A stretch of DNA of 64,000 bases from Candidatus Omnitrophota bacterium (GCA_024277375.1 JAJRVD010000027.1:19063-83062); one strand, 5' to 3'; shown: positions 1 through 64,000, numbered from the stretch's first letter. The notes: a model not told the origin generated them from the sequence alone. Numbers and translations: made by a program.

Positions 1-7
1 GCTTTTC

Positions 8-415: not shown

Positions 416-493
416 TGATCATTATTTGAATTAGGTTGCTTGTATTCTAAGCTTTTGTTATAATAACAAAACAATTGTTAGGAGTAAGTAAGT

Positions 494-4876: not shown

Positions 4877-4921
4877 AACGGATTAATAAATAAAGAACAA
4901 GCGTGCGACCGTTTTAAAGAT

Positions 4922-6607: not shown

Positions 6608-6621
6608 AGGCCGCTCCTACG
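6604..6621 (+). repeat. Partial copy of REP family B (AGGCCGCTCCTACG core)
   Basis: gtagaggccgctcctacg matches the core of the REP sequences that flank the RAYT gene at 55965-56526. It lies at the 3' end of pabB. Confidence 0.5.
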
Positions 6622-6622
6622 A

Positions 6623-16879: not shown

Positions 16880-17301
16880 TGAAACAATTTGCCGCGGGCG
16901 GTGTGGTAATAAAAAAAGAAAGAGGAATCCCAAAAATTCTTCTCATAAAAGATAGCTACGGTCATTGGACCTGGCCGAAGGGGCATATGGAGAAGAAAGA
17001 AACGCTTGAAGAAACGGCCCTGAGGGAGATCGCCGAGGAGACCGGCCAGAAGAAAACAGAGATAGTGAAAAAGATAGGGGAGCAGAAATATATTTTTACG
17101 CTTCGTGGTAAAAAAATATCTAAAATCGTTTACATTTTTTTGATAAAAGCACAGGCGCGAGAAAAACTTGTAGTACAAGCTTCGGAAATAGAGAAGGCAA
17201 AGTGGTTCCGGGCAGAAGAGGCGCTGGAGAAGATAGAGTACAAAGGTTCTCGCGCGCTACTTAAGAAGGGAATAGAGGCGTTTAAAAGGAAATATTGCTG
17301 A
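16879..17301 (+). CDS. NUDIX hydrolase
   Basis: A canonical Nudix box GHMEKKETLEETALREIAEETG (GX5EX7REUXEEXGU) is present. TAATG overlap with the helicase stop. Confidence 0.8.
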   Translation: MKQFAAGGVVIKKERGIPKILLIKDSYGHWTWPKGHMEKKETLEETALREIAEETGQKKTEIVKKIGEQKYIFTLRGKKISKIVYIFLIKAQAREKLVVQASEIEKAKWFRAEEALEKIEYKGSRALLKKGIEAFKRKYC

Positions 17302-18451: not shown

Positions 18452-18597
18452 TGGGGGCGCGGCATGCAGACTGTGTCGTAATTTGTTTCGCGGATGACCG
18501 CATACAACATATTGTAGGGGTTCGATTTATCGAACCCGATATAACGGGCTTGATGAATCAAGCCCCTACATTATGACACAGTCTGATGCCGTGCCCC
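18452..18597 (+). repeat. Family D structured repeat, copy 1. It is about 115 nt, with an outer stem cagactgtg/cacagtctg and two internal hairpins. It could be an ncRNA or a MITE.
   Basis: The core tgtgtcgtaat...gtaggggttcgatttatcgaacccgatataacgggcttgatgaatcaagcccctacattatgacacag is conserved in 4 copies. The outer stem pairs with a G-U wobble (tgtgtcgtaat / attatgacaca). The internal hairpins are ggttcgat..atcgaacc and gggcttga..tcaagccc. Confidence 0.7.
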
Positions 18598-18693
18598 TAC
18601 GGATGATTTTTTTTGCTCGGTTATTTCAAACATTTTAAAAGCATATGAGGTGCAGGCGATGAAACTGTCATTGAGAAGAGGAGCTAAGAGCAA

Positions 18694-18733
18694 GGGGGAC
18701 AGCCTCTTTTTGGCCAAAAAGAGGCTGTCCCCC
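18694..18733. repeat. Palindromic repeat family A copy (gggggacagcctctttttggccaaaaagaggctgtccccc)
   Basis: A perfect hairpin. It lies inside the first 35 codons of the six-frame ORF 18650, so the real start of the giant gene is probably downstream at 18755. Confidence 0.65.
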
Positions 18734-18754
18734 TTGCTACGTTGTTCGCTCGTG

Positions 18755-24700: not shown

Positions 24701-27700
24701 TCAGGATACTTTGGAGAATTACTATATAGGGTAGACCGGTCGGGGGAGAAAGAACAGGAATTGCTGGATCTTGACTTGAAGACAGAACCATTGAAGGTAT
24801 GGGAATTGATAGATATTCTCATTGAAGTTGATTCATTTCAGCAAGATCTATACGAGTTCCTGACAAAAGATACCGCATATTCGGCAATACCCGGACAACA
24901 GTATTTGCCGCTTAATGTGAATGTCGTAAATGTTGTAGGGCAGATGGTTGAAGAAACGAGAAGTGCAAATCGGGTGAATATAAGGGGCAATCTTATCGCG
25001 ATAAGCGGGCAATTCCCCGGATATTATGCCGCTATTTGCGATTCTATTCTGAGGAATCCTGCCAGGATTCTAGAATTTGACATTGCCCCGGAAGTTGTAG
25101 AAAGAAATCTAAAATTTCTTCAACCTGAAAATTCCAAAGATCATATAACCTCTTTTGAGGGGTTTGTGGCGTTTCTGAAGAGGGAAAGTAAAGTTACCGA
25201 TAATATGGGGAAATCACCCATTGGTAAAGGTGTTCTGGATATATCGAAACGTGTTTTTAAATTCTTCGGCAAGGAAATAACTCCGGTTGTTGAAAATACA
25301 TGGATCCCGGTATTTGAAGAACTTGTGATGTTTTTGGTTTTGGCGGGCGGATATTTGGGCGGGTTATTCGTTCTTTCCGCACTGCCGTATATCCTCACCA
25401 GAATTATATTTACCGCATGGCACCTGAAAAACGAAAGTGGCACCTGGTTGCAGAAAATGCTTGTGCCGGGCATCGCGTCTGTGTTTGCGCTTATACCGGT
25501 GATGGCGGTTTTGGTATTGCCGGCGGTGTCCGCAGAGTTAATGTTAGCGGCGGCATTGGCTTTGGGAACCGGAACACATGTGCTAGGAAACCGGAGAGTA
25601 CACAAAAAGCGGATGGATGCATTTAAGCGTATCTTCGAAGAGAAAAAAGAAACTCTCGTTAAACAGGTAAGTGATGAAGAATTATTGGATGAATTTATCG
25701 GATATCTAGATGTGAATGTCAAAGAACTATTCGGGATCGGATTGCTTCTTGAGATAAGAGAGTTCTCTAAGTCTATACCTTTATCCAGAGATGAACAAAC
25801 TCGTCGCGGAAGACAAAGGGCGATTCTTTTAATGGCCGGGTTGAATGTCAGCGAAACGGAGTTGTACAAAGAAAATCAAAGAAAGATCGAGGAAGAACGC
25901 GTAATAGCGGAAGATCTAAATGGTATGGAAAATATTCATGATCTGATAGAGGGAAAGTTTGTTACGGTAAAACAGCTGAAAAGGGCCATAGAACTGTCCG
26001 CTGGGAACATAACCTCAGCGCTTGAAACATTAAATAAACTGAAAGACGTTATTAAAAAACACGGTATCGATGAGCTGTTTGAATTAGCCGATTTGGAGCG
26101 CGTATCCAATAATGTTCCGTGGAATTGTTTTGAATGGGTTGATTATGATTCCGCGCGAGATTTATTGGATCAATACGGCATCAAGCCATTTCTCAAAATG
26201 AGACGTTTGGGAGTAGGAGAATATTCATATCGTTCCATAGATTCTTATTCTCTGACGCTTCGGGGCATATTTAATTTGGTTAGGGACATGAGAGATGGGG
26301 ATATCAGTGAGAGATATGGGATAAGTGTTACCGGTTCTAATGTCGAGAAAATAACCATCAACATCATCAAAGAAAAGATATCGCTAAAAGGGCCGTCCAG
26401 TTTGCCTGTTAACATGTTCCCGGAAGATGAGATCGAATTTTTAGAAAAAAGTCATGAGGATACATACCGGCGTGAGAGCGAAAAAAACATGGATCGTTAT
26501 CTGAACAGGGAAAAACATAAAAAAGCGATATTGTCGTATATGCTGCTTTGCGAACGTTACGGCCCGGATAACATTAGGCGTCTTGTGCGGGATAACGTGC
26601 TGGAGAAGTGGAGCGAAAAAGTAGAGTCAATTAAAGACCAGTTGAGAGATCTAAAATCCGTGATCGACTTGCCGAGTGTCGGGATAGAACCGTTTGTTGA
26701 GTTTTCCGGAGGGAATGAAGACGGGCTTTGGCCGCTGACATTTATTGAAAAAGAAAAATGGGCACAATTTCTTACGTCGATACTAATTCAAAGAGGAGAT
26801 GTCACCGCGAAAAATAAAAGGCTCAGCGATCTTTATATCAACAATATGCTCGCTTCGGTAGGGAACAATATTGTTCCGAATGTGTCTATGATCAATGTTA
26901 TCGCGGAACTCCTTACACATAACGCGCAAAGCGGGGTACATCCCGTAGAGAGTTTTTTGCTTTCCGCGCTTGGTGAAGCGGGATTAAACAAGGGTTCAAT
27001 AGAAAAAATCTTAGAATATCTGGCGAAGAACAAAAAAAGTGAGATAAAAAGGTCGCAAATTATACGGGCCTTAGCCGGTATATATTGGGGATTTAAGTAT
27101 GAACGCTTTTCGGCGGGAACAATAGATACGCGAATGATAAACGCTATTATCGAGACGGAAGACACTCGCCGATTAAGCGCGGCGCTGAATTTTATCCCCG
27201 CGTTAATTGATCTTCTCGAGTCGGGAATACTTGCCAAAGAAGAGATCGAAACCGGGACAAGATCGGGAAATATAGTTGACAAAATCGGAGGGTTATTGAA
27301 AAGTAAGATTGAAGAAACATTTAGTATAAAGATCAGTGATACCGATTTGGAGGTACAGGCGGCTCTTTCCGACACGTATTTTCTGGCGGATTTATTCAGT
27401 TTTCGAAGAAAGTATAAGGAAGAAGACGAAAACGCCTATAAGATATTCCTGGGATTGGTCAAAGCGTATTTTGAGAACGGCAGTAAAGGTGTGAGAGAAT
27501 ATAAAAACTCAAATGAGCTTGTCAATGTACAAATCCCTGAAAGGATAAAGGAGAAAGGATTTGAACAACTTTCGCGCCTCAGGACGTTCGCGCGGTCGGG
27601 GGAAGGTGAAGAGATGAGTGTATTTGACCGACTATTTAAAACAACATTAAGAAATTATGATGAGCATTCTAAGGAAATGAAATTTGATCCCGGTTCGATC

Positions 27701-33220: not shown

Positions 33221-33331
33221 TTGTGTCGTAATTCGTTTTGCGGACGCTCGCATGCAATATATCGTAGGGGTTTGATCCATAGAACCCGATATAACGGGCT
33301 TGATGAACCAAGCCCCTACATTATGACACAG
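33221..33331 (+). repeat. Family D structured repeat, copy 2
   Basis: ttgtgtcgtaattcgttttgcgg...gtaggggtttgatccatagaacccgatataacgggcttgatgaaccaagcccctacattatgacacag. It is 55 nt upstream of purH. Confidence 0.7.
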
Positions 33332-44872: not shown

Positions 44873-44977
44873 ATTCGTTTTGCGGATGACAGCATACAAC
44901 ATATTGTAGGGGTTCGATTCATCGAACCCGATATAACGGGCTTGATAAATCAAGCCCGTACATTATGACACAGTCTG
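44873..44977 (+). repeat. Family D structured repeat, copy 3
   Basis: gtgtgtcgtaattcgttttgcggatgacagcatacaacatattgtaggggttcgattcatcgaacccgatataacgggcttgataaatcaagcccgtacattatgacacagtctg. It lies between the two FecR-domain paralogues. Confidence 0.7.
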
Positions 44978-45030
44978 ATAAAAAACAGCGTTTCGCACAA
45001 GTCTAGTCAATGAATACAAAGGAGGGTGAT

Positions 45031-45930
45031 ATGAAATTTTTTTTAACCTTTACAGTATGCGCGATATTCGCGATCTGTGCCTCTTTCTCAGGGCATGCTT
45101 TGCCGGAGAAAGTAAGTATCATTTCTTATGGAGGGGATGCCAAAGTTGTTTTCGCGGGCCAGACAGACTCTATCGCGTGTAAGCCGGGAATGCTTTTAGA
45201 GGCGGGAGCGCGTCTCATAACCGGCAAGAACTCTTTTATCGAAATAGCTTTTGATGAAAACGCGGACAATATCGTAAAAGTTGAAGAAGAAACAGAGGTT
45301 ATTATCAAATTGTCGGGTATAGACAAGATCGAACTTGTTGATGGTGAGATGTTCACGCTGTTACAGGCTTTGGATGGAAAAGAAACTTTTCAGGTTCGTA
45401 CGCCGTTCGCGACCTGTGGAGCCAGGGGAACCGGGTGGAGGACTAAAACAGATGGCAATACCACTGATGTGGCGGTTATCAGGGACAAAGTTTACATTCG
45501 CGGTATAAATAAAGACGGGTCTGACATGGAAAAGAAATTTTGGGTTAAGGAGGGTTTTGAGAGAAAGGTAAATAAATTTGAGCGTCCCGGAAAAACGCAA
45601 AAAATAGATAAGGTAAGGTTTTCTGGCATGGAAAAAGAGATCAAGGTTCTTCAAAAGACCAAAGACAAAAAAAGAGTCCTGCCTAAGGAACCGATAAGGA
45701 CGCTGGAGAATCCTATTGTGAATAAATTGGACGATACTATCGACAAGATGGATAGGATCGACAGAATAGTGGGCCGTCAGGAGAAAGTAGAGATTAGAGA
45801 AAGGATAGACGACAGAAGAGAAGGCTTCAGAGATATAAAGAGAGATAATGTTTTAGACCGTAAGAGTGACAACAAAGTAGTGAATATACGTTTACGGAAA
45901 CCGAAGCCCGATGGCGGAGGAAATCAATAA
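45031..45930 (+). CDS. Secreted FecR-domain protein paralogue with a K/R/D/E-rich C-terminal extension
   Basis: Signal peptide. Its FecR-like segment (…FQVRTPFATCGARGTGWRT) aligns with the 44013 paralogue over about 150 aa. An AAGGAGGG RBS precedes the ATG at 45031. The C-terminal 120 aa are highly charged. Confidence 0.6.
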   Translation: MKFFLTFTVCAIFAICASFSGHALPEKVSIISYGGDAKVVFAGQTDSIACKPGMLLEAGARLITGKNSFIEIAFDENADNIVKVEEETEVIIKLSGIDKIELVDGEMFTLLQALDGKETFQVRTPFATCGARGTGWRTKTDGNTTDVAVIRDKVYIRGINKDGSDMEKKFWVKEGFERKVNKFERPGKTQKIDKVRFSGMEKEIKVLQKTKDKKRVLPKEPIRTLENPIVNKLDDTIDKMDRIDRIVGRQEKVEIRERIDDRREGFRDIKRDNVLDRKSDNKVVNIRLRKPKPDGGGNQ

Positions 45931-46961
45931 TGCGAAGATATTTCCTCGGCACATGTGTCCTTTTTATAGCCTTAGCCTTCGGTGGGGTAAGATCTTTTGC
46001 CGTTGATGAACAGATAACGGATAGGTATCCTTCTACAAGCCAGCCTCCGGAGAAAATAAAAGAAGTTGAGGAAGATGTTCCTTTCGAGCGAAAGCTCACA
46101 GAAATTACCGGATTTGTAGATCTACAGCAGGGCTATGACAATAATGTTGATCTTAATTCACAAAGACACAAAGATGGATTTTTGCAGGGGACGGCAAATA
46201 TAGACGTCAAATATGAACAGGCGGATAATTTAAAGTTGCGTGCGGGGGTAGATCTCTTTGAAGCGATTTACTATAAGCACAATGTTAATAACCTGTTAGA
46301 TGTGTCTCCTTATGCTGGTTTTGATCTGGAGATAACGCCTGAGATCATTTCCCGTAATCGTGTTATGTTTGAATATTTTTCTTATCCGAACAAGAAGGAA
46401 AGTACGTTTTCCGGGATCGTCCTTACATCGTATCTAAGGCATTATATTTCAAGAACGTTATATCAGGAAGTCGGATATGAATATATTCGGAGGTGGTATC
46501 CTGATAAGAAGGTGGCTCTCCATGAAGCGCAAGAAGGAAATATTGACAGGGGTGACGAGCGATATAGAGTCAAGTATAACGTAGGGATGTATTCGGATCG
46601 TTTTTTTGTGCGACTGAGCAATGAGTTCGCCCGGAATAACTCGAATTATACGTATCAGGAATATTATGATTATTGGTACTACAGGGTTAAGCCGTCAATC
46701 ATGTATTTCTTTACGGAAAAATTATATACAGCGGTAGGCGTTATTTATAAACGCACGAAATACAAGGATCGGCGTAGTACCGACGATCCCACGAAGATAG
46801 TAATAGATAACACTGTCATATGCGATGCTACCCTGTATTACGATATTACTTCCGGTATGACGTTCGGCCTTACGTATGCTTATAGCGAAAATTTTTCTAA
46901 TGATCCATATCAGCAATATTCAGGCAGTGTGGTTTCCGGAGGGATCTACTACAGTTTCTAA
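45930..46961 (+). CDS. Putative outer-membrane beta-barrel protein
   Basis: A signal peptide (ALAFGGVRSFA) is present. The sequence alternates and is rich in aromatic and Tyr residues. The C-terminus ...GGIYYSF ends in Phe. The stop overlaps the start of the upstream gene. Confidence 0.45.
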   Translation: MRRYFLGTCVLFIALAFGGVRSFAVDEQITDRYPSTSQPPEKIKEVEEDVPFERKLTEITGFVDLQQGYDNNVDLNSQRHKDGFLQGTANIDVKYEQADNLKLRAGVDLFEAIYYKHNVNNLLDVSPYAGFDLEITPEIISRNRVMFEYFSYPNKKESTFSGIVLTSYLRHYISRTLYQEVGYEYIRRWYPDKKVALHEAQEGNIDRGDERYRVKYNVGMYSDRFFVRLSNEFARNNSNYTYQEYYDYWYYRVKPSIMYFFTEKLYTAVGVIYKRTKYKDRRSTDDPTKIVIDNTVICDATLYYDITSGMTFGLTYAYSENFSNDPYQQYSGSVVSGGIYYSF

Positions 46962-46963
46962 AT

Positions 46964-48880
46964 ATGTTTAAAGAGTTTGATAGAACGAAAGTATTTTATT
47001 TTTTATTAATAGCCTCTCTAGTGGGGTTATTCCTCTATTTTTCATATTCCAGAGCATTTGATGAATTTGAGAACAGTGCTATTGATTTCCGTTTAAAATT
47101 GCGTCCGCACCAGGATGTTAGTGATGATATAGTTATTATTGAGATTGGTGATGACTCTATAGAGAAACTGGGGAAATGGCCTTTTCCCCGTAATTATCAC
47201 GCCCTTCTTACAAACGCGCTAAAACATTCCGGGGTAAAGACCATAGTTTTTGATATATTTTTCAGTGAAGGCAAAAAAGAGGATGAAGAGTTTGCCAGGG
47301 CTATTAGAGAAGCCGGTAACGTATATATGCCTCATGTTTTTGAGTTGGATAGGGAGAATCCGGACAGATCACGTCTTTGTGCCACAGGTTTTGCCGCTCG
47401 TTTGATAGAAGTGTACAAAAAGCCCGCTAAGGGTGTTGGTTTTATTAATGTTGTTCCGGAGATCGATGGTAAGATCCGCAGAGTTCCCCCTTTTGTCGAA
47501 TATGAAGGTGTATACCATCCGCATATAACCGTTTTAGCTGTACTGAATAACTTGGGATATAGCTTCAGCGACGTCAAGATCATTCCTCAGAAAAGTTTTA
47601 TTGTCTCTGAGGATCTGGTTATCCCTTTGGACGAGAATTCTTCGATCCTGGTTAATTATCCGGATGTTTGGGGCAAAGCTTTTCGACACTATTCCTACAT
47701 AGATATATTGCAATCTTACCTGGCGGATGTAACAGGACAGGAACCCATCGTGGACTTAAGTGAACTGAAAGACACGGTTTGCTTTATAGGCCTTACAGCG
47801 ACAGCATCACCGGATGCTCATCCATCGCCGATGGAACCGCTTTATCCGGGAGTAGGGGTTCATACGAGTCTTTATAACAGTGTGTTGAATAAAAGTCTTT
47901 TAGTAAGATTGAACCGGTGGTGGAATCTTCTTATTCTGATTATGCTGTGGGTGCTTACGGCATTCGTTACATCAAGAAGTCGTAAAAGGTTTGTTATCCC
48001 TTTTATTGTTCTTCTTATGGTGTCCTTTGTCTCCGCGGCGGTACTGCTCTTTTGTTTCGCGGGTATATGGATAGATGTTTTTTATCCTGTTGTTACGGTA
48101 GCCGCCGTGTATGTTGTTTTCGCGTTCAAAAAATATGTGGGTGAAATACAAAAGCGTGAGATATTAGAGAAAGAACTGGATATCGCGAAAAATATACAAC
48201 AGAGTTTTCTCCCCAGAGAGATCCCGGAGGTGGGAGGCATTAAGATAGGCGTTGAAATGTTAACGGCACGTCAGGTAGGTGGGGATCTTTATGATATTGT
48301 GCAGCTTGACGAGGATAGACTTGGCGTTATGTTGGGCGATGTTTCGGGGAAGGGGGTTCCGGCGGCTCTTTATATGGCAAGGGTTGTAAGTGTTTTTAAA
48401 ACCTATGTAAGGAAAGGCGCCGTCGCCGAGGTCGTAAAAAAAGTAAATGAAAGGTTGGTTGACGAGGGCGGCAGTAATCTTTTTGTAACGTTGACGTATA
48501 TGGAGTTCAAGACAAAGACCAATACTGTAGACATGGCGATAGGAGGGCATTTGCCTACTATTGTTATAGGCCCGGATGGGAATGTGGAGCTTCTTAATGT
48601 TGAGGAAGGAATGCCTTTGGGGCTTATAAGCAGTGACTTTTCACAAATAACATATAAGTATAAACCCGGAAGCATCTTTGTGCTTTATACCGATGGTGTT
48701 ACCGAGGCGATGAACCTGAAAAAAGATATGTTTGAAGAAGAGCGTCTTGTAGAACTTTCTAAAACACTAAAAGGATGTTCGCCAGAAGAAGTTGTAAAAA
48801 CAATTCACAAGGCCGTAGATGACTTTGCTGGTAAGGCCAAGCAATTCGATGACATCACGGTGATGGCGATTAAAACGTAA
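46964..48880 (+). CDS. CHASE2 sensor domain - PP2C-type serine phosphatase (RsbU/SpoIIE-like)
   Basis: The N-terminal CHASE2 pattern is DDIVIIEIGDDSIEKLGKWPFPRNYHALLTNALKHSGVKTIVFDIFF. TM helices follow. The C-terminal PP2C signature is GDVSGKGVPAALYMA...DGVTEA. Confidence 0.8.
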   Translation: MFKEFDRTKVFYFLLIASLVGLFLYFSYSRAFDEFENSAIDFRLKLRPHQDVSDDIVIIEIGDDSIEKLGKWPFPRNYHALLTNALKHSGVKTIVFDIFFSEGKKEDEEFARAIREAGNVYMPHVFELDRENPDRSRLCATGFAARLIEVYKKPAKGVGFINVVPEIDGKIRRVPPFVEYEGVYHPHITVLAVLNNLGYSFSDVKIIPQKSFIVSEDLVIPLDENSSILVNYPDVWGKAFRHYSYIDILQSYLADVTGQEPIVDLSELKDTVCFIGLTATASPDAHPSPMEPLYPGVGVHTSLYNSVLNKSLLVRLNRWWNLLILIMLWVLTAFVTSRSRKRFVIPFIVLLMVSFVSAAVLLFCFAGIWIDVFYPVVTVAAVYVVFAFKKYVGEIQKREILEKELDIAKNIQQSFLPREIPEVGGIKIGVEMLTARQVGGDLYDIVQLDEDRLGVMLGDVSGKGVPAALYMARVVSVFKTYVRKGAVAEVVKKVNERLVDEGGSNLFVTLTYMEFKTKTNTVDMAIGGHLPTIVIGPDGNVELLNVEEGMPLGLISSDFSQITYKYKPGSIFVLYTDGVTEAMNLKKDMFEEERLVELSKTLKGCSPEEVVKTIHKAVDDFAGKAKQFDDITVMAIKT

Positions 48881-50778: not shown

Positions 50779-50865
50779 GCCGGAGTGGTGGAATTGGCAG
50801 ACGCGCTGGATTCAAAATCCAGTGAGGGCAACCTCATGTGGGTTCAAGTCCCACCTCCGGTACCA
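50779..50865 (+). tRNA. tRNA-Leu (anticodon CAA)
   Basis: A cloverleaf can be drawn by hand. Acceptor gccggag/ctccggt. Anticodon arm ctgga-ttCAAaa-tccag. Long variable arm. Encoded CCA. Confidence 0.8.
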
Positions 50866-51020
50866 AAATTCCTGAATAACAGGAATTTTGTGAACAGATA
50901 TCTTGAAAAACAGATATCTGTTCAGTTCGTTCGGCGCAAAACCATCGGAAATAAATTCCCGTGATTTTGCTTCTCGCGAACTTTTACCGGAATGGGGATC
51001 TTCTTGGTGGGGGCGCTTAA

Positions 51021-51043
51021 GGGATTTCCCACCTCCGGTACCA
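51021..51043 (+). other. Duplicated 3'-terminal fragment of tRNA-Leu(CAA)
   Basis: gggatttcccacctccggtacca; the last 17 nt are identical to the 3' end of the tRNA-Leu 160 bp upstream. This is a candidate att-type direct repeat or a decayed tandem tRNA. Confidence 0.5.
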
Positions 51044-51060
51044 GTTTGCATGAAATATGT

Positions 51061-51136
51061 GGGGCTGTAGCTCAGCTGGGAGAGCGCGTGCATGGCATGC
51101 ATGAGGTCAGGGGTTCGAGCCCCCTCAGCTCCACCA
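51061..51136 (+). tRNA. tRNA-Ala (anticodon GGC)
   Basis: ggggctgtagctcagctgggagagc...cgtgc-atGGCat-gcatg... Carries the G3:U70 identity pair. T arm aggggttcgagcccct. Encoded CCA. Confidence 0.8.
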
Positions 51137-55965: not shown

Positions 55966-56526
55966 CGTAGGAGCGGCCTCCGGCCGCGAACATTATGAAA
56001 AAAATTCACAAACAAAATAATTTACGAAAGGCCAGGATATACAATTCGGAATATCCGTACTTTGTAACAATTTGTACCGACAGTGGGCAGGAGTTGTTTG
56101 TGGGGAAAAATATTCCGGAATTATTGATAGAGAGCATTAAATGGTTCGCGGATAATTCATTGATACTGAATCTCGGATTTGTGATTATGCCTGATCACTT
56201 ACATTGGGCGTTTGCTTTAGTAAGGGGAGAAAAATTGGATAATATTATGCGACGATACAAAAATTGTACCGCTCAAAAGAGAAAAGATCTTAAAGATGAT
56301 GACATTCGGATGTGGCAAAAAGGATGTTATGATCACTTATTGAGGAATGTATAGGATTGTGAAGTAAAACTCAAATATATGCATAACAACCCTGTTCGAA
56401 AAGGCCTGGTAGATATCCCAGAGGAATATCTATACTCTACAGCTAATGAGAAATACACGGATATGATAAATTGGGAGTATGTCTGGGGTTTATGAAATAT
56501 GTTCGCGGCCGGAGGCCGCTCCTACG
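55943..56526 (+). mobile_element. REP-RAYT unit: IS200/IS605-like Y1 HUH transposase gene flanked by inverted REP family B copies
   Basis: Left REP at 55965-55991 (acgtaggagcggcctccggccgcgaac), with a partial copy at 55943-55958. Right REP at 56501-56526 (gttcgcggccggaggccgctcctacg) is the exact reverse complement. It is inserted in the 560-bp gap between comEA and comEC. Confidence 0.75.
55995..56495 (+). pseudogene. REP-associated tyrosine transposase (RAYT, IS200-like TnpA) with an in-frame TAG at 56352-56354 between the HUH and catalytic Tyr motifs
   Basis: The HUH motif is VIMPDHLHWAF. The same frame continues after the TAG as DCEVKLKYMHNNPVRKGLVDIPEEYLYST. This is the Y-x3-NPV-K/R-GLV catalytic-Tyr region typical of RAYTs. 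The total would be 166 codons. Confidence 0.7.
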
Positions 56527-58092
56527 ATGAAAAGGCCGATATTATTGTTGATAATTTCATATTTCGCGGGATTAATAGTTGTCGGGGTGACCGGAATTGC
56601 GATAGTTCCCGGGATTACAGTCGTCTTAATAACGTTTATTACTCTATCCGCCGTATTCTCGAAGAAGAAAAAAGTTTTTTATGCGCTTCTATGTGTTTTC
56701 TTTTTTTTGTTGGGAATTTTTAGATACTCTTCTGCCGTAACACCGGGCGCGGGGAATATATGTAATTTTGTGTCTGAAGAACCTGAGAGAGCTGTTCTTT
56801 ACGGAATTGTCGCTAGCCCCGGCGAGCATAAAGGGAAGTCATTTCGGGAACGTTTTGTGTTCCAGATAAAAGCGGAACGGCTGCTTATAGATGGGGAGGA
56901 ACATAAGGTTACGGGAGGCGTACAAATAGACCTTTATTCTTTGCGCAAGAAGCCCGCATTGGGGAATAGATTGGTTATTGGCGGTAAAATATTTCTGCCA
57001 AAAGGGGAAAGCGGACCCGATGGTTTTGACTATAAGGCTTACCTAAAGCGAAATAGTATTTACGCGGTAATGAGATCTTCGGAGGATGATTATTTTTTAA
57101 AGGTTGAGACCGGAAAGAACCCGATTATGCAATGCCAGCGATTTCTTTCGGAGGCCAGGACCCAAACGGACAGGCTATTCACCAAATATCTTCATGGTCA
57201 GACTCGTGACATTACCCGATCCATAGTTCTCGGCCTGCGTAGTACTCTAACCAAAGGCACAACTACCATATTCAGAAGGACAGGTACGATGCATATCCTG
57301 GCGGTAAGCGGTTTGCATATAGGGGTTGTAGCACTGATGTTGATGGGATCTTTGAAACTTATCAAGTGTCCGAAGATGGTAATGTGTTTCCTTGTGATAG
57401 CCGGGATATGTTCGTTTGCTGTTTTTACGGGCGCGCGAACATCTTCGATACGCGCCGCGATAATGGCGTCGTTCCTCTTGGTGGGTTTGGCGATGGAATG
57501 GAGGGTAGACATAATAAATACACTCATCCTGTCAGCGTTTATAATTACGTTTTTTCTCCCGGGGCAATTATTTCAACCGGGTTTTATCCTCTCGTACACA
57601 GCGGTCCTTTCGATAATTTACATAACACCCGTTACGGATCGGATGTTGAGAATCGTAAAGGGCGAAAGGTTTGAAAGCAGGATGGCGAGAATCCGGAGGT
57701 ACGCGTTAAAGTCAGTATCGGTATCGGTCGCGGTGTGGATAGGTATGGCCCCGGTGATCGCGGCATATTTCAACATAGTTACGCCTTCGGTGATATTGTC
57801 TAATCTTGTAGCGATCCCGATGCTTATAGTCGTGATCGGCCTGGGTTTTTCTCTGGCATTGGTTGGCGCGGTAAAGATTCTTGTGCCGATAGCCTTTGCT
57901 GTTTCCGGCATCCTGAATTTTTTGATACCACTTTTTTTAAAGACACTCCGGGACATCTCCAGTGTGCCTTTTTCGTTTATCGAAGTGCCCACGCCAAATT
58001 GGTTATTTATAGCGGGATACTATGCCGTTCTGGCGGGAGGATTAGTGAGAATTCGTTCAAACTGGTACGCCCGACAGGATTCGAACCTGTGA
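56527..58092 (+). CDS. comEC: ComEC/Rec2-family DNA internalisation channel protein (lacks C-terminal metallo-beta-lactamase domain)
   Basis: The ATG at 56527 immediately follows the right REP. A DUF4131-like N-terminal region is present (DYKAYLKRNSIYAVM). The competence-domain signature is HILAVSGLHIGVV. Polytopic. The last 10 codons overlap tRNA-Arg on the opposite strand. Confidence 0.75.
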   Translation: MKRPILLLIISYFAGLIVVGVTGIAIVPGITVVLITFITLSAVFSKKKKVFYALLCVFFFLLGIFRYSSAVTPGAGNICNFVSEEPERAVLYGIVASPGEHKGKSFRERFVFQIKAERLLIDGEEHKVTGGVQIDLYSLRKKPALGNRLVIGGKIFLPKGESGPDGFDYKAYLKRNSIYAVMRSSEDDYFLKVETGKNPIMQCQRFLSEARTQTDRLFTKYLHGQTRDITRSIVLGLRSTLTKGTTTIFRRTGTMHILAVSGLHIGVVALMLMGSLKLIKCPKMVMCFLVIAGICSFAVFTGARTSSIRAAIMASFLLVGLAMEWRVDIINTLILSAFIITFFLPGQLFQPGFILSYTAVLSIIYITPVTDRMLRIVKGERFESRMARIRRYALKSVSVSVAVWIGMAPVIAAYFNIVTPSVILSNLVAIPMLIVVIGLGFSLALVGAVKILVPIAFAVSGILNFLIPLFLKTLRDISSVPFSFIEVPTPNWLFIAGYYAVLAGGLVRIRSNWYARQDSNL

Positions 58093-58139
58093 CCCTCTGC
58101 TTAGAAGGCAGATGCTCTATCCAGCTGAGCTACGGGCGC
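58063..58139 (-). tRNA. tRNA-Arg (anticodon TCT)
   Basis: The reverse complement is gcgcccgtagctcagctggatagagcatctgc-ctTCTaa-gcagagggtcacaggttcgaatcctgtcgggcgtacca. Confidence 0.8.
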
Positions 58140-58147
58140 TCCAAGTT

Positions 58148-58231
58148 TGGTGCGGATGAAGGGATTCGAACCCCCACGGTAAAACCACTGGCTCCTAAGG
58201 CCAGCGCGTCTGCCAGTTCCGCCACATCCGC
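58148..58231 (-). tRNA. tRNA-Leu (anticodon TAG)
   Basis: The reverse complement is gcggatgtggcggaactggcagacgcgctggc-ctTAGga-gccag + long variable arm + gggggttcgaatccc...cacca. Confidence 0.8.
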
Positions 58232-58247
58232 ATTTATGCATATATAG

Positions 58248-58325
58248 TGGTCGGGAAGGTGGGATTCGAACCCACGACCCCCTGCTCCCAAAGCAGGTAC
58301 GCTAGCCAAACTGCGCCACTCCCCG
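58248..58325 (-). tRNA. tRNA-Pro (anticodon TGG)
   Basis: The reverse complement is cggggagtggcgcagtttggctagcgtacctgc-ttTGGga-gcagggggtcgtgggttcgaatcccaccttcccgacca. Confidence 0.8.
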
Positions 58326-58550
58326 AAATATTCTCAAAATAGAAACCTCATTATAGCAATGCCGTTTTTCGAAGTCAAGAACTGTTCGATATTTACCCGA
58401 TCCGGGTCTTTTCCGGGCCCTTTCCAGACCTTTCAGAAACTTCTTGTCTGCCAAATAGTACTGTAATATAATAACTTATCTTTTTTATGCAGGGAGTAGG
58501 GGCACAGCATACCGTGCTTCCACGTATACGAAATTACAAACAGAGAGGAT

Positions 58551-60065
58551 GTGGCGGGGATGTTTAGAACTTTTCTTGTATTAGTGTTGTGTCTATCTTT
58601 TTCCTGCGGTGATGTTTTTGCCCAGGCGAAGGCGGATGACGAGCTTTTGAAAAAGGGTATTTATCTGTTTCGTCAGGAAAACTATGATGAGGCTCTTGAC
58701 GCTTTCAGCGAGGTGATAAAAAAAGATCCGAAGTCTTCTCTGGCAGAGTACTACATGGCTCTCACGTATAAGAGAACAGAAAACTATGTTGCTTCAAGAG
58801 AACATTTCGAGAAATCCTTAAGTTTAACTCCGAAGATCAAAGGCGCGCTTATAGAGTTGGTCGATCTCCTTTACCGTCTTGGGGAATATGACGAAGCTAA
58901 GAAATGGATCAAGATTGCGGAAGAGGAAGGTGTACGTCCCGCCCAGACAAAATTCCTTAAAGGTCTTACTCTTCAGAAGAACGGGGAATACGTTGAAGCC
59001 ATAAAAGCGTTCGCGGACGCTAAAGATCTGGATGATAAGCTGATACAATCGGCGGATTATCAGACCGGTGTTTGTTATCTGAAAATGAAGAGATATTCTG
59101 ACGCTCGGGATCTTTTTAAAGATGTTTTTGCCGTGGACCCTTATTCGGATATTGCCGAACAGGCTAACACATATGTCGTGGCTTTGGAACGTAAGATCGA
59201 AAAAGACAAACCTTTTCATTTTACGGCTAAAGCCGCCTTCGAGTACGATTCTAATGTTATTTTAAAACCTACGGATTCCACTCTTGTCTCGGGGGTGACC
59301 GACCAGGATGACACCCGACAGGTATTTGACCTGAAAGGCGATTATACGTTCAAGACGGAAGATAATTTCCTCAGCCTGAAGACAGGATATGGGTTTAAGG
59401 TCTCCAAACAAAATGATTTCGGCGCTTACGATCTCGTCGGCCACAACGTTTCGGCCCAGGGTAGTATTTCGTTTAAGAAAGTGCTTGTTACATTTCCGGT
59501 GAACTACAGCTATACGGTAGTTAACGAGAAAAATTATCTTTCAAGTTTTACCGCCGGAAACATTAATAATTTCATGTTGGGTAAAACTCAAATGGCGCAG
59601 TTAGGCGCGCTCTATACACACGATGACTATTTGCGACCCTCGGCTACCGCAAGTGAAGACAGAACAGGAAATGAGCTTACGGCGATCGCCGGATGGTTCC
59701 ATTTTTTTAACGGGGGAAAAGGATTTGTGAATTTGAAATACAGCTATAACAAAGATTGGACGAAAGGTGCTAACTGGCAATACTCCGGACATAAGATCAA
59801 TGCCGGTGTTTTGTATCCCTTTTGGGACAAATTTAAGTTGAGCGTAAATGGTGAAGTGTTCCTGCAAAATTTTGATAATACCCATACGGTTTTTGACAAA
59901 AAGCGGCAGGATCAGGTATATACGGCCGCGTCACTTTTGTCTTATGAATTTTTAAAGAATATGGAAGTTCAGGTTCGGTATACATATGTGAACGAAAGAT
60001 CGAATCTTAGTGTTTATGAGTACGACAGGCACATAATAAGCACGGGTGTACAATATAAGTTTTAG
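58551..60065 (+). CDS. Secreted TPR-repeat protein with C-terminal outer-membrane beta-barrel (Slam/DUF560-like architecture)
   Basis: A signal peptide is present. About 200 aa of TPR-like repeats follow (YYMALTYKRTENYVASREHFEKSL...). The C-terminal half alternates in beta-strand-like fashion and ends GVQYKF. Confidence 0.55.
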   Translation: MAGMFRTFLVLVLCLSFSCGDVFAQAKADDELLKKGIYLFRQENYDEALDAFSEVIKKDPKSSLAEYYMALTYKRTENYVASREHFEKSLSLTPKIKGALIELVDLLYRLGEYDEAKKWIKIAEEEGVRPAQTKFLKGLTLQKNGEYVEAIKAFADAKDLDDKLIQSADYQTGVCYLKMKRYSDARDLFKDVFAVDPYSDIAEQANTYVVALERKIEKDKPFHFTAKAAFEYDSNVILKPTDSTLVSGVTDQDDTRQVFDLKGDYTFKTEDNFLSLKTGYGFKVSKQNDFGAYDLVGHNVSAQGSISFKKVLVTFPVNYSYTVVNEKNYLSSFTAGNINNFMLGKTQMAQLGALYTHDDYLRPSATASEDRTGNELTAIAGWFHFFNGGKGFVNLKYSYNKDWTKGANWQYSGHKINAGVLYPFWDKFKLSVNGEVFLQNFDNTHTVFDKKRQDQVYTAASLLSYEFLKNMEVQVRYTYVNERSNLSVYEYDRHIISTGVQYKF

Positions 60066-60080
60066 CGGATCCCCGTCTTT

Positions 60081-60200
60081 CAGACTATGTCAAGATGTAG
60101 GGGCTTGATTTATCAAGCCCGTTATATCGGGTTCGATGAATCGAACCCCTACAACATTATTGCAGGCAGCCCGTCGCGAAATGACTTTTGGTACAGTCTG
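60081..60200 (-). repeat. Family D structured repeat, copy 4 (inverted orientation)
   Basis: The reverse complement reads cagactgtacc...gtaggggttcgattcatcgaacccgatataacgggcttgataaatcaagcccctacatcttgacatagtctg. The core and outer stem are conserved and the 5' arm has diverged. Confidence 0.65.
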
Positions 60201-60239
60201 TTCGCGATGGATGACAGACAAGACAATGGAGGTAATATA

Positions 60240-63200
60240 ATGAAGAGTATAAAACTGGTCGTAGCGGTAGCGGTTTCGCTGTTACTCGCGTTTCCTATGA
60301 GTGTTCTTGCTGATGTGGTTGGTACGGTTACTTGCATCGAAGGCAGGGTTGATAGACTGGATATAGAAGGGGATAAGTATCTTCCTCTCGTAGTAGGCGA
60401 GGATATCTCAGTCGGCGACGCGATAAGAACAAAGAGTTTTTCTAAAATGGAAATTTCTTTTGAGGATAATTCTGTTGTTCAGCTGGGTGATAGCTCTCAG
60501 ATCAGGATCAAGGATTATACCGTGGGTGATGATGGATATAGGAAAAGCAGCGCCATAGATCTTGATAGAGGCAAGATACGTGCTATTGTGTCAAAAACTC
60601 CGGAGTTAACGCCGTTTGATATCAACACACCAAACGCATCCGGTTTTGTTAAAGGATCCGATATTTTCGTATCGTTCCTGCAGTCATCCACGAATGTATT
60701 GGTGACGGAAGGGACATTTACAATGGCCAACCCGACGTTTCCTGATGATCGTATAGACGTGAATCCCGGTATGACTTCGCTGGTGCCTTACAACGCGCCC
60801 CCCAAAGATCCGCGTGCTTTTTTGCCATCGGAGAAAGCAAAATACGAAGATGCAATTAGTCCCATTGTTAAAAAAACCGAAGGCGTAACGGAGAAACATT
60901 TCACCAAAGCTACGGTTTCCAAAACGTCCGGTGAGGTTAGAGTGCAGTCCAAAGGCACAAAAGAGTGGAAGGTGGTAACGAAAGATGTTGTGCTGAACGT
61001 GGGAGATCGAGTCGAAACGGGTAAAACCGGGAATATTCAGATAGTTTTTGATAACGGCCTTATCATAGAGCTACGCCCAAATACGCAACTTATTATTGTG
61101 AAGCTTAATCGTAACCCGAAAACAGGTGATTACGAAAGCATATTTGAATCAAAATACGGTAAGCTTATAGCCAAACTTCAGAATAAACCTGCCACGTCTA
61201 CGTTTCAGGTTAAGACTCCGCATGCGGTATGCGGTATACGCGGAACGATAATGTATCTTGATATCCTGCCTAATGCTACCAGAAGTTTTTTTGAAGGTGG
61301 TGAAGGTTTTGTGGCGGACGCCGCTACAGGCACGGCAAGAATAATACAGTTGGGAACTACCGCAACGACAGATGGTCAGGGGAATACGACAGAATCTGAG
61401 ACTACCGATGAGGAACGTTCCGGATTCGGTAGTGGTTTTGGTTCTGAGGGTGGCGATGAATACGGTTATTCAGGCGGAGGAGGTGGTGATCCCGCTGGTG
61501 ACCCTGATCCGGATCCGGCTCCGGCACCGGATCCCGCGCCGGTAGACCCGGACCCATCGGGTGGTGATGACCCCACAGGAGGTGATGTCGGAGACAATAT
61601 TACGAACGATATTATCGTTGACTTGACCAACCAGGAGCAGATAGTTCCGGTGGTGATAAATGATGAAAATACCGGCCCTGTTGATGTGAGAGCCGATTAT
61701 AACGGCACATATGGGTGTTACGGCTCTTTCGCGGCCGATCCGGAAAGTTGGGTGAGAGGCGTAATATCGGGTTCAACCAGCGGTGCTCCATGGATGGGTA
61801 TCTATCCGGCGGCGTTTGCGGGGGAATACTTCAATCCGAACGGATTAGACCTTTTTTGGGGTGAACTCGAAGGTGAAGGCTCGGACGGTGGAAGCATATA
61901 CGGGCGCATGGTCGGCGCTTCCGGTGATGCGCATGGAACGGAAACAGTGCTAGCGTCCCTATATGTGGATCCGTCCAATACGACGGGATGGATCTTTAAC
62001 GGTAATGACACTTCGGATGTCTTCTTTATACCCGTTACAGAAAGCCCTGTCCCGGCGGAAAATTTGCTGGATTCGATAAATGAAAGCGATGTGGAAACCG
62101 AATTGTGGTTTGATTTTTATAGAGATGAAGGCTATTTCGAAGGTGAATGCGAGGTCAATCAAATAAGCATCGACAGAGAAAACTGGGGTATATGGGAAGG
62201 TATTTTTAGCGCGTGGTATGACAACCCTGAAGGCATTGAGAACTGGACCGGTGTCAATATAGATGAGGCATTTGGTTCATGGCAGTATGGCCTTTTGATG
62301 GAAAGAAGAGTGTTGTCAGCACGAGTGATGGATTTTGACGGATTCGGCGAGGGTTATTCCATCACTGTTGTTGAGGGGATAGATGATCTGGAAGGATTTC
62401 TCCGAATGGATGTTATGGGGATGTATCTGGATTCTTACAGTCTTAACACTATGTATGGGACTATCGTGGGTACGTATGAGGCTAGAGATGGTTATTATTT
62501 CGAGGGTGTTGGCGCGGGAGGATGGAGTCAAAGTCCGCTTGCGTGGAGTGCGGAAGTGGATGCGTATTATCACTATCTCGATTATGGTGAGATTACTAGT
62601 GACGATTGTGAGTACGTTCATGCCGGTTTAGCGGGCGCTGTAACTTCACCGTTCGTTTCGCCCGGGACTCCGGTCGCGATCACCCTTATGGGGGAGACAG
62701 AACCCTATGGGTATATTTCATGGTGGGGGTATGTGTCCGAAAATGAGATGAGCGATGGTAGTGTTCTTCCCGACGGTTTTATCGGGGGGCGCACGAATTC
62801 CTGCGAGGGGATGCTTGCCAGTTTGTATATAGACGGCGACGGTCATGCCGGAACATTGTGGGGCAACTTTGACGGTGAATATTATGAGAATTTTGACATG
62901 TGGATGGCGACGGGAAGTATGACCGCTACGCAAAGAACCGTAGGGTATGACCCAGGGAGCTATGACACGGATGTTTACTATATGGATGGCGATATATACG
63001 GAGACTTTAATGATACGGGAGGGGAGATCTATTCTGACTATGGGATATACGGTGTGGCATATGGAGAACTGGGCGCGTACACAGCGTGGTTGATCAATCC
63101 CGAAACGGGTGATGCTGAACCGTGGGGTATATACAATATTGAACTTGGTGGTTATTTTGACTATCCAGATACATCGGACGACTGGACTCTTTATCTTGGT

Positions 63201-64000
63201 TGTGATAACGGTGAATGGCGTGATCTGGATCCGGATGAAAGATGGTTTGCGACCGTAGAAGGCAGTCAGTGGTCGGATCAAAGAATAGCGGGTACCTTAT
63301 ACGGAAGATATATGACTTCCAGGGTGCTGGGGACTATCAGCGGCGAAGTTCTCGGAAGCTATGATACGGAAGATTATGAGTCTTGGGAGGCGATAGCTCT
63401 CGGGGTGTTTACGGAAGAACCTCTTTCTCACCGTGGAAAAATCGAAGATGGTGAATTTTACGCGTTTACATTTGATGGGAGAATGGAATTCGGATTGAAT
63501 CCGGAACCCATCGGAGACATGAATGGTGTTATGGGTGGTGTGGGATCCTTGTGGTCGGGAGCGGATGACGTAACGTTATTGGGGTCGAGCCAATTGTATG
63601 ATAGTCTATCTTCTTGTGTGTGGAGGGCTCCTGTGTATAGTCGTAATGATGGAAGAATAACTTACACTACTTATGATGGCGGCGCTTACTATGGTTTCCT
63701 TCTCGGTTCACAGCGTGAGACTGAGATTGAAGGGGTGATGAGAGCACTGTACTTAGGACCGCCTGACGAGGATGGGAATATGGACGTTGGATTTGTTTCC
63801 GGTGATTTTTCCGGGGTGAATGCTCCCGATCTGGATATGTTCTGGATGGAAGGTTCCCTAGAGACAAATAGTATGGGTGTTTTTACGGAAATGCCGGGGA
63901 TATCATCACCTGAAGATCTGTACTTTTATTTCTCCGAGAACGATGAAGAGAGTTTCTTGGCCGGGGTAGGTGTTTGCCTGGGGGATCCGGAAGGAGAATC
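60240..64000 (+). CDS. Giant secreted protein (more than 1250 aa, 3'-partial). Two N-terminal FecR domains, a Pro/Asp/Gly-rich linker, and a long W/Y/G/D-rich repetitive region
   Basis: The ORF runs from the ATG at 60240 to the window end without a stop. It is absent from the track because it is unterminated. The signal peptide is MKSIKLVVAVAVSLLLAFPMSVLA. FecR domain 1 spans about aa 25-130. FecR domain 2 spans about aa 235-340 (…FQVKTPHAVCGIRGTIMYLD). The linker is PDPDPAPAPDPAPVDPDPSGGDDPTGGD, near nt 61490-61600. Confidence 0.75.
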   Translation, partial: MKSIKLVVAVAVSLLLAFPMSVLADVVGTVTCIEGRVDRLDIEGDKYLPLVVGEDISVGDAIRTKSFSKMEISFEDNSVVQLGDSSQIRIKDYTVGDDGYRKSSAIDLDRGKIRAIVSKTPELTPFDINTPNASGFVKGSDIFVSFLQSSTNVLVTEGTFTMANPTFPDDRIDVNPGMTSLVPYNAPPKDPRAFLPSEKAKYEDAISPIVKKTEGVTEKHFTKATVSKTSGEVRVQSKGTKEWKVVTKDVVLNVGDRVETGKTGNIQIVFDNGLIIELRPNTQLIIVKLNRNPKTGDYESIFESKYGKLIAKLQNKPATSTFQVKTPHAVCGIRGTIMYLDILPNATRSFFEGGEGFVADAATGTARIIQLGTTATTDGQGNTTESETTDEERSGFGSGFGSEGGDEYGYSGGGGGDPAGDPDPDPAPAPDPAPVDPDPSGGDDPTGGDVGDNITNDIIVDLTNQEQIVPVVINDENTGPVDVRADYNGTYGCYGSFAADPESWVRGVISGSTSGAPWMGIYPAAFAGEYFNPNGLDLFWGELEGEGSDGGSIYGRMVGASGDAHGTETVLASLYVDPSNTTGWIFNGNDTSDVFFIPVTESPVPAENLLDSINESDVETELWFDFYRDEGYFEGECEVNQISIDRENWGIWEGIFSAWYDNPEGIENWTGVNIDEAFGSWQYGLLMERRVLSARVMDFDGFGEGYSITVVEGIDDLEGFLRMDVMGMYLDSYSLNTMYGTIVGTYEARDGYYFEGVGAGGWSQSPLAWSAEVDAYYHYLDYGEITSDDCEYVHAGLAGAVTSPFVSPGTPVAITLMGETEPYGYISWWGYVSENEMSDGSVLPDGFIGGRTNSCEGMLASLYIDGDGHAGTLWGNFDGEYYENFDMWMATGSMTATQRTVGYDPGSYDTDVYYMDGDIYGDFNDTGGEIYSDYGIYGVAYGELGAYTAWLINPETGDAEPWGIYNIELGGYFDYPDTSDDWTLYLGCDNGEWRDLDPDERWFATVEGSQWSDQRIAGTLYGRYMTSRVLGTISGEVLGSYDTEDYESWEAIALGVFTEEPLSHRGKIEDGEFYAFTFDGRMEFGLNPEPIGDMNGVMGGVGSLWSGADDVTLLGSSQLYDSLSSCVWRAPVYSRNDGRITYTTYDGGAYYGFLLGSQRETEIEGVMRALYLGPPDEDGNMDVGFVSGDFSGVNAPDLDMFWMEGSLETNSMGVFTEMPGISSPEDLYFYFSENDEESFLAGVGVCLGDPEGE

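Follow-up and report, generated by a model that had tools for sequence, protein, structure and literature searches.

The 64,000-nucleotide (nt) stretch of DNA analysed here (Candidatus Omnitrophota bacterium, GCA_024277375.1 JAJRVD010000027.1:19063-83062, one strand; hereafter the window) ends inside an open reading frame (ORF) that starts at position 60240 and follows, on the same strand, a gene for a protein with tetratricopeptide repeats (TPR) and a β-barrel. With slightly better than even confidence, we propose that this ORF encodes the cargo of a dedicated Sec-dependent display system of the outer membrane, in which a FecR-type head serves as periplasmic anchor. The pairing of the cargo gene with a gene for a Slam-like barrel and, usually, a chaperone gene suggests a dedicated surface-display system of a kind unreported outside Proteobacteria. 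Coordinates refer to the whole window, amino acids (aa) are numbered from the cargo's ATG at 60240, and the features are collected in Table 1.

Architecture of the cargo protein

From this ATG, which is served by a GGAGG Shine-Dalgarno sequence at 60228-60232, translation to base 64000 yields 1253 codons and zero in-frame stops, and re-examination upheld the open frame reported in a preliminary description of this DNA. Because a database protein of 1550 aa, P0001, is 100% identical across the entire window query, the ORF can be closed outside the window, with its stop after aa 1550, ~892 nt or 297 codons past the window end. We rate the protein as large rather than giant, the word first used for it. 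The ORF does not end shortly after the window without further domains, since P0001 adds the remainder of module 3 (see below) and a conserved C-terminal domain.

The cargo begins with a Sec-type signal peptide, MKSIKLVVAVAVSLLLAFPMSVLA/DV, read by eye from the sequence, and among the 73 family members scored as FecR-headed, 68 begin in a comparable way. It is followed by two FecR domains, recognized by Pfam FecR (PF04773) in two stretches (E 3.5e-24; 85.5 bits against a gathering cutoff of 24); both features had been named in the preliminary description. FecR domain 2 shows a weak match to DUF7354/MtxA_N in Pfam and to the MtxA structure 4z29 (E 0.021, phmmer against PDB), and the NCBIfam models Lsa33 and LipL45 match aa 221-393. 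For aa 18-188, the best PDB sequence match is 5ix9_A (E 3.4e-4, phmmer). This entry holds RIN, the domain at the N-terminus of the Marinomonas ice adhesin MpIBP that lies in the periplasm; RIN is too large for a TolC-type pore and has been proposed to act as a plug (PMC5550230). The NCBIfam model retention_LapA (NF033682) matches aa 26-93 with 32.6 bits and E 7.8e-8, below its cutoff of 50. RIN has been the template for the LapA retention module, and the flexible linker after that module has been modelled through LapE (10.1101/198937). Through these two weak but mutually independent similarities, FecR domain 1 bears a faint likeness to a retention plug.

Both retention-type similarities are followed by a disordered linker of the same kind as in RIN and LapA. 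In the cargo, this is the linker earlier noted for its PDPAP motif, a tether at aa ~394-470 in which G makes up 21%, D 20% and P 17%. In 111 of the 153 family members covered by the analysis, a low-complexity tether likewise comes after a FecR-type head, with a median tether length of 71 aa and ~70% G/P/D/E/S/T/N. The head does not have the build of a FecR/PupR anti-sigma protein: a cleavable signal peptide runs straight into FecR, with neither an anti-sigma domain nor a transmembrane helix. Genes for extracytoplasmic function (ECF) sigma factors and TonB-dependent transducers are not among the neighbours, the cargo locus holding the TPR-barrel gene, tRNA genes, ComEC and ComEA.

The remainder of the protein is built from a ~290-aa module, which an iteratively built hidden Markov model (HMM) finds three times in P0001 (aa 503-754, 794-1054 and 1091-1386), while the C-terminal domain weakly matches its second half. 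BLASTP of P0001 against itself showed no internal repeats, which surfaced only with the iterative HMM, and no Pfam or NCBIfam model covers the module. This ~290-aa periodicity replaces the short motifs from which repetition had first been read: WxxYxxGxxDxDG has 0 literal occurrences and YGIYG a single one. An AlphaFold2 (AF2) model of aa 1060-1550, computed from a 31-row alignment that included the internal module copies, is all-β, with a predicted local distance difference test score (pLDDT) of 81.3 and a predicted template-modelling score of 0.77. It shows three successive sets of eight long antiparallel strands (10-16 residues) with short helices between them. Profile-profile comparison relates the first unit of the module (A) to the second (B; 95.8% probability, E 7e-9) and B to the C-terminal unit (95.7%, E 9e-9). 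Since the three modelled units are homologous, P0001 is predicted to consist of the head, the tether and seven related eight-stranded units, namely three A+B modules and the C-terminal unit; for module 1, the unit structure is assigned through homology to the modelled module 3.

The preliminary description had seen a resemblance to β-propeller or β-helix adhesins. The modelled chains of eight-stranded up-and-down β-barrels rule out both readings, for which there were no family matches either, and an RTX protein is ruled out by the model together with the absence of RTX family matches in Pfam and NCBIfam. A fold search with the cargo model returned the soluble barrels of LbpB (6.4), TbpB (6.3), hemophilin (6.0, 5.9 and 5.3) and HpuA (5.8) as well as avidins, scores that denote a fold class of the modelled units and not homology. 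Foldseek of the same model against PDB gave nothing meaningful (template-modelling (TM) scores ≤ 0.2). A PEP-CTERM sorting signal, considered because of the BBP2/EpsL matches of the partner protein, was not present at the cargo C-terminus.

The aromatic and acidic character noted earlier for this region is borne out: aa 470-1330 contain 15% Y+F+W, 17% D+E and 14% G, with 0.1% K. Over 1080 aa the cargo carries a net charge of about -150; it has hardly any Lys and little Arg there, and the last strand is followed by an acidic tail. Residues 1330-1550 are without any Lys, and His is scarce in aa 470-1550 of P0001. As the family median is 1.5% K, the near-absence of Lys in P0001 is a lineage-specific extreme.

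With the module and C-terminal domain profile, an exhaustive HMMER search through 1.84 billion representatives recovered 562 proteins at E ≤ 1e-3, of which 505 also reached E ≤ 1e-10 (representatives at 50% clustering), where a word-indexed search had given just 14 relatives, all from Omnitrophota-type metagenome-assembled genomes (MAGs). Complete family proteins carry 0-10 modules, and lengths reach 6991 aa, with 10-20 matched stretches in the members of 3756-6991 aa. Median identity to P0001 is highest in the head (~50%), followed by the C-terminal unit (39%) and the internal units (27.5%), a sequence pattern that would fit contacts of both head and tail with the export machinery.

A conserved partner gene

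The gene upstream of the cargo encodes a 504-aa protein for which AF2 predicts (pLDDT 91.8) a signal peptide, 11 TPR helices and 14 strands of an outer-membrane barrel. Together with the Pfam TPR_2 match (E 3.3e-22), this agrees with the TPR plus β-barrel protein of the preliminary description, as do its co-orientation with the cargo gene and the gap, then put at 175 nt: the partner's stop codon ends at 60065, leaving a spacer of 174 nt. The barrel is of the CymA/OmpG-like, open-pore type with 14 strands. Weak Pfam matches are to DUF2860, BBP2_2 and TPR_Slam (23.8 bits against a cutoff of 35.2; TPR_Slam matches 38 of 75 members), and there is a weak match to EpsL. A PDB sequence search returned generic TPR proteins only for the partner profile and nothing for a barrel-only profile. 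Neither partner nor cargo has Pfam matches to POTRA, ShlB, Omp85 or haemagg_act.

About 100 orthologues of the partner, each of ~500 aa, were collected. Several of them (P0107, P0108, P0105 and P0090, 35-46% identical to the window barrel) exceed the Pfam threshold of SlipAM (PF04575/DUF560), with 26-33 bits against a cutoff of 22; the matches cover profile positions 1-280 of 288 in P0107 and P0108, 57-278 in P0105 and nearly the full length in P0090. The window barrel alone gives no SlipAM hit at E ≤ 10. Among 36 barrel-only sequences, SlipAM matched 5, BBP2_2 28 and DUF2860 22, and individually inspected alignments place the BBP2_2 and DUF2860 matches on the C-terminal strands only. By sequence, the partner family thus lies at the border of SlipAM, with the window copy itself outside. 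The Slam-like architecture proposed earlier holds for the TPR domain, the 14 strands and several orthologues, and does not extend to a SlipAM match of the window's own barrel. Its suggested role as dedicated translocator is one that we infer from synteny and predicted fold.

Conservation of the gene pair was assessed in 21 distinct loci: the window, three loci from exact-protein look-ups and 17 from a scan of species-representative genomes, which does not include the window's own genome (best match there 46%). A full-length TPR-barrel orthologue (37-68% identity) adjoins the cargo gene in 20 of them, directly upstream and on the same strand in 19 and downstream in L006, while the wider neighbourhoods differ. 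The co-occurrence check suggested in the preliminary description is therefore strongly positive. In 10 loci there is also an adjacent gene of ~245-300 aa for a chaperone of the SurA/parvulin type, whose SurA_N_3 and Rotamase_2 scores are close to the Pfam cutoffs; in L009 the cargo gene lacks this downstream neighbour.

The reverse test leads to the same pairing. The SlipAM-positive P0107 and P0108 are followed, 11 nt on, by proteins of 731-734 aa that carry a single FecR domain and a single module ahead of the C-terminal unit, and P0095 by a 1577-aa full family member and a SurA-like gene. More remote barrels are followed by a FecR-only protein of 297 aa (P0114, 24% identical) and by a protein of 181 aa that weakly matches a retention module (P0118, 22% identical; E 3e-4); P0115 is an exception, its next gene encoding a His-rich protein. 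Since the pairing persists beside remote barrels, the invariant core is a TPR-barrel and a FecR-headed protein, with a variable C-terminal extension.

A proposed route to the cell surface and its alternatives

Beyond cargo architecture, fold classes, genetic coupling and conservation, the mechanism is one we infer. The cargo would be exported via Sec and held unfolded in the periplasm by the SurA-like chaperone. The TPR-barrel protein might then recognize it by the FecR head and the C-terminal barrel unit, which are its most conserved regions, and the barrel chain could thread through the 14-stranded pore and fold unit by unit outside. Being too large for the pore, the FecR head would remain in the periplasm and act there as plug or anchor, with the pore occupied by the tether, similar to the retention of LapA and MpIBP. 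The product would be an acidic surface rod whose length varies by lineage, from one to ten or more modules, plausibly an adhesin or spacer in ultra-small, host-associated bacteria.

Several observations weigh against this proposal. The similarities to retention modules are sub-cutoff (32.6 against 50 bits) or marginal (E 3.4e-4). The window barrel goes unrecognized by SlipAM, and BBP2_2 and DUF2860 hit more barrels than SlipAM does. One locus, L023 from the single-cell genome of Ca. Omnitrophus magneticus, is without a barrel gene. The SurA-like neighbour is known from relatives, the window ending inside the cargo gene. Finally, the FecR-only partners of 297 aa have nothing to display, and CHASE2 sensor genes recur near FecR and barrel pairs, which hints at signalling.

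This last point is the core of an alternative in which the FecR head, docked to the barrel, acts as a transducer in the manner of FecR-FecA, the chain as a sensor arm and CHASE2 phosphatases or cyclases as the output. FecR is by origin a signalling fold, and at 45010-48877 the window itself holds a second set, in which genes for a 306-aa FecR protein and a 343-aa barrel-like protein are joined by a CHASE2-SpoIIE gene. Moreover, a CHASE2 cyclase gene adjoins the pair of a remote TPR-barrel and a FecR-only protein, and L030 has a CHASE2-SpoIIE gene three genes downstream of its full cassette. However, the window and most loci have no CHASE2, ECF sigma or anti-sigma gene next to the cassette, the cargo combines a cleaved signal peptide with the lack of an anti-sigma domain and transmembrane helix, and one to more than ten modules plus a SurA-like partner are less expected of a sensor than of a fibre, structural or secreted. 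We consider signalling as the main function unlikely, though the two readings are not exclusive, given that a displayed fibre could signal too. A slightly lower probability still falls to a periplasmic scaffold or spacer of variable length that is never translocated and is held on the partner's TPR domain by the FecR head or the C-terminal unit. Sec export of the cargo, the periplasmic location of a SurA-like protein and the nature of TPR domains as periplasmic protein-binding modules would all be accounted for. Yet members of 3756-6991 aa with 10-20 matched stretches far exceed the width of the periplasm, the composition is extremely acidic and nearly Lys-free, a mere anchor needs no 14-stranded barrel of the open-pore type, and a plug-like head with a disordered tether mirrors known through-pore anchoring.

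Two further readings concern the nature of the barrels. If the cargo units were membrane-embedded barrels like OmpA or NspA, the TPR-barrel and SurA-like proteins would be their dedicated assembly factors; all Foldseek matches are outer-membrane barrels, with 10-16 residues the strands are long, Gly and aromatic residues are abundant, SurA is a chaperone of outer-membrane proteins and the even strand count permits periplasmic links between units. We judge this very unlikely, as outer-membrane proteins do not resemble a chain with a net charge of about -150 over 1080 aa, Lys nearly absent and Arg scarce, the last strand leads into an acidic tail and the Foldseek TM-scores do not exceed 0.2. The least probable of the explanations, in our assessment, takes the TPR-barrel for an exopolysaccharide export porin, whose layout in PgaA, BcsC and PelB is likewise TPR plus barrel, and the neighbouring FecR gene as incidental or regulatory. 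The weak BBP2_2 and EpsL matches point in this direction, but the barrel has 14 strands rather than 16-18, polysaccharide synthase genes are not consistently adjacent, and 20 of 21 loci have a FecR-headed neighbour, an adjacency that even barrels of 24% identity retain.

Going beyond the display system that we favour, FecR-fold heads and SlipAM-like 14-stranded barrels might form a general and so far unrecognized docking pair of the outer membrane outside Proteobacteria, a distinct class of secretion and anchoring with a SurA-like chaperone. We advance this tentatively, as possible rather than probable. If true, it would be a Sec-dependent counterpart of the plug-in-pore retention of LapA/LapE, fused to barrel-chain export of the T11SS type (see below); small FecR-only versions with CHASE2 sensors as neighbours would rely on such docking to signal in the envelope, and the fibre could be both an attachment organelle and a surface sensor in host-dependent nanobacteria.

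Relation to known secretion and anchoring systems

The type XI secretion system (T11SS), described across Proteobacteria, combines TPR and a 14-stranded barrel with Sec-dependent cargo ending in an eight-stranded barrel (PMC8406197; 10.1101/2024.09.26.615229). The Omnitrophota cassette resembles it in a partner of ~500 aa with an N-terminal periplasmic TPR domain and a 14-stranded barrel, in partner orthologues above the SlipAM threshold and in an adjacent gene for a Sec-dependent cargo with a modelled eight-stranded barrel end, which may correspond to that of T11SS cargo proteins such as TbpB, LbpB, fHbp, HpuA and hemophilin. In contrast to T11SS, the window barrel is without a SlipAM match, and its cargo is no lipoprotein and has no sequence match to TbpBBD. 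There are up to dozens of barrel units instead of one, the FecR head and tether are unmentioned in the literature on T11SS cargo, a SurA-like gene is part of the cassette, and the host phylum is Omnitrophota rather than Proteobacteria.

With the type I-secreted RTX adhesins, represented by LapA/LapE of Pseudomonas fluorescens and the RIN domain of MpIBP, the cargo may share the sequence type of its N-terminal β-sandwich; here too, a flexible, Gly-rich linker comes right after this domain, and then a long chain of repeated β domains. The proposed topology, with the plug in the periplasm, the linker in the pore and the fibre outside, would also be shared. Here, however, export starts from a Sec signal peptide, Pfam and NCBIfam show no C-terminal RTX or type I secretion signal, no locus has ATP-binding cassette, membrane fusion protein or TolC genes as neighbours, and the pore is a 14-stranded monomeric barrel rather than TolC-like. 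The head is a duplicated FecR of ~370 aa in which, by eye, there is no TAAG site for LapG, and the similarity scores lie under curated thresholds.

Two-partner secretion (type Vb; TpsA exported by a TpsB such as FhaC or ShlB) offers a parallel in gene order, with the barrel gene first and the cargo second, in a cargo that has a Sec signal and a conserved recognition domain at the N-terminus, its C-terminal part being long, repetitive and variable, and in a transporter with a periplasmic protein-binding domain. This domain is TPR here and not POTRA, the barrel has 14 instead of 16 strands, matches to Omp85/ShlB or haemagg_act are absent in Pfam, and the cargo is a β-barrel chain rather than a β-helix. 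By analogy, the proposed logic would combine T11SS with retention of the LapA type and parallel two-partner secretion.

Among FecR-domain proteins, Leptospira Lsa33 (E 8.5e-26) and LipL45 (E 2.4e-17) are the best NCBIfam matches of the head; they are exported, non-regulatory and annotated as surface adhesins. The scores are far under the family cutoffs (90.8 against 420 bits), and LipL45 and Lsa33 are lipoproteins of ~300-400 aa without a β-barrel chain. FecA-FecR-FecI likewise couples a periplasmic FecR-fold domain functionally to an outer-membrane β-barrel protein, but the cassette has no cytoplasmic anti-sigma domain, transmembrane helix or ECF sigma factor and no TonB-dependent 22-stranded transducer, and its head is fused to a large secreted-type region.

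Omnitrophota are uncultivated, ultra-small and thought to be mostly host-dependent, and their large surface proteins, suspected of a role in attachment, are almost wholly unannotated (PMC10066038; 10.1101/2023.11.21.568195). Papers on giant genes of Omnitrophota make no mention of FecR or a TPR-barrel partner, and within the searchable library, publications joining Omnitrophota and FecR had unrelated content only; within these limits, the cassette and the β-barrel-chain family are undescribed. The family now gains a concrete anatomy, a partner and a testable mechanism of export and anchoring, and the ~145-aa β-barrel repeat would constitute a new family of ~560 representatives at 50% clustering without a Pfam model. 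If our proposal is true, export of the Slam/T11SS type would extend past Proteobacteria and from single-barrel cargo to long barrel chains, and the FecR fold would be tied to adhesin retention. The smallest members (~730-930 aa) suit the E. coli co-expression assay in use for T11SS.

Locus features and additional observations

Table 1. Features of the cargo and partner genes in the window (P0001 numbering beyond its end)
Feature	Position (nt)	Position (aa)	Strand	Basis and remarks
Promoter-like site, TTGTCT-17-TATAAT	58444-58472		+	consensus scan, 10/12 matches; a match is no proof of function
Partner gene	58551-60065	504 aa	+	signal peptide aa 1-24
Partner TPR domain	58632-59204	28-218	+	Pfam TPR_2 E 3.3e-22; 11 helices in AF2 model
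Partner 14-stranded outer-membrane β-barrel	59214-60059	222-503	+	AF2 model
Structured spacer, 174 nt	60066-60239		+	two perfect hairpins, 60100-60120 and 60129-60148
Cargo Sec-type signal peptide	60240-60311	1-24 (...VLA/DV)	+	read from translation; no lipobox Cys
Cargo FecR-type domain 1	60315-60809	~26-190	+	Pfam FecR best stretch aa 60-159
Cargo FecR-type domain 2	60909-61418	~224-393	+	second Pfam FecR stretch
Cargo low-complexity Gly/Pro/Asp tether	61419-61649	~394-470 (~75 aa)	+	composition; includes GGGGGDPAGDPDPDPAPAPDPAPVDPDPSGGDD
Cargo module 1, two predicted 8-stranded β-barrel units	61653-62531	~472-764	+	HMM aa 503-754, E 2.8e-40
Cargo module 2	62532-63416	~765-1059	+	module HMM aa 794-1054, E 3.1e-52
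Cargo module 3	63417-64000	cut by window end at 1253; reaches ~1392 in P0001	+	
Conserved C-terminal 8-stranded unit	outside window	1416-1530 of P0001		

The promoter-like site lies ~80 nt upstream of the TPR-barrel start, and three minus-strand tRNA genes (58066-58325) separate the cassette from comEC. The spacer between partner and cargo folds, as RNA, at -68.5 kcal/mol (z -6.1), and its two hairpins can alternatively pair together into one long stem. With ~1-94 nt, the spacer is shorter in relatives. The structured spacer may tune the ratio of barrel to cargo expression.

The cassette varies among relatives. In L008 (Ca. Makaraimicrobium, 1-8576), two systems stand in tandem, with the end of a cargo gene, a SurA-like gene, a TPR-barrel gene and a second cargo gene, whereas the order in L006 (5247-13546) is cargo, TPR-barrel, SurA-like. 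In L025 and L026, where the barrels are SlipAM-positive, the gene after the small cargo gene (12767-17173 and 12768-17093, respectively) encodes a protein of 1441-1468 aa. Its domains are DUF7948, SBBP, C-type lectin and Flg_new_2, and it may add another surface protein to the locus. P0115 lies in L028 (1-10175) between a 7110-aa giant gene with RHS, discoidin and laminin-G domains and a 917-aa protein with His/Ala-rich, HNAFH-like repeats and no family match. Four MAGs with the cassette (L007, L010, L013 and L020, from binchicken assemblies) are titled 'uncultured Planctomycetia' or 'Actinomycetota', and their cassette proteins are 28-46% identical to P0001, as in loci titled Omnitrophota; either these titles are mistaken or the cassette has a wider distribution.

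In the second, small FecR system of the window, the CHASE2-SpoIIE gene encodes a phosphatase, and the 343-aa protein ends in ...GGIYYSF, aligns end-to-end with the partner barrel profile (hhalign 51%, E 1.6e-4) and matches SlipAM at E 0.019. CHASE2 genes also lie beside or near FecR and barrel pairs in L027 and L030. The other two large ORFs of the window, 494-4876 (1460 aa) and 18650-29623 (3657 aa), have no Pfam or NCBIfam match, and module comparison found the β-barrel module in neither. Between the comEA-like and comEC genes, an ORF at 55995-56354 (119 aa) shows a weak, sub-cutoff match to an IS200-type Y1 transposase (E 4.4e-4), and a tRNA pair on the plus strand (50779-51133) follows a phosphoglycerate mutase gene.

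One of the spacer hairpins recurs in the window. The palindrome GGGTTCGAT-NN(N)-ATCGAACCC is present four times, at 18518-18537, 33268-33287, 44910-44929 and 60129-60148, against a chance expectation of 0.01, and an Rfam scan of the window matched tRNAs only and not the hairpin. All four copies are on the plus strand, in spacers just 5' of plus-strand genes that include the large ORF at 18650 and the cargo ORF, and the hairpin could be an element similar to repetitive extragenic palindromes, an operator or an RNA stabilizer.

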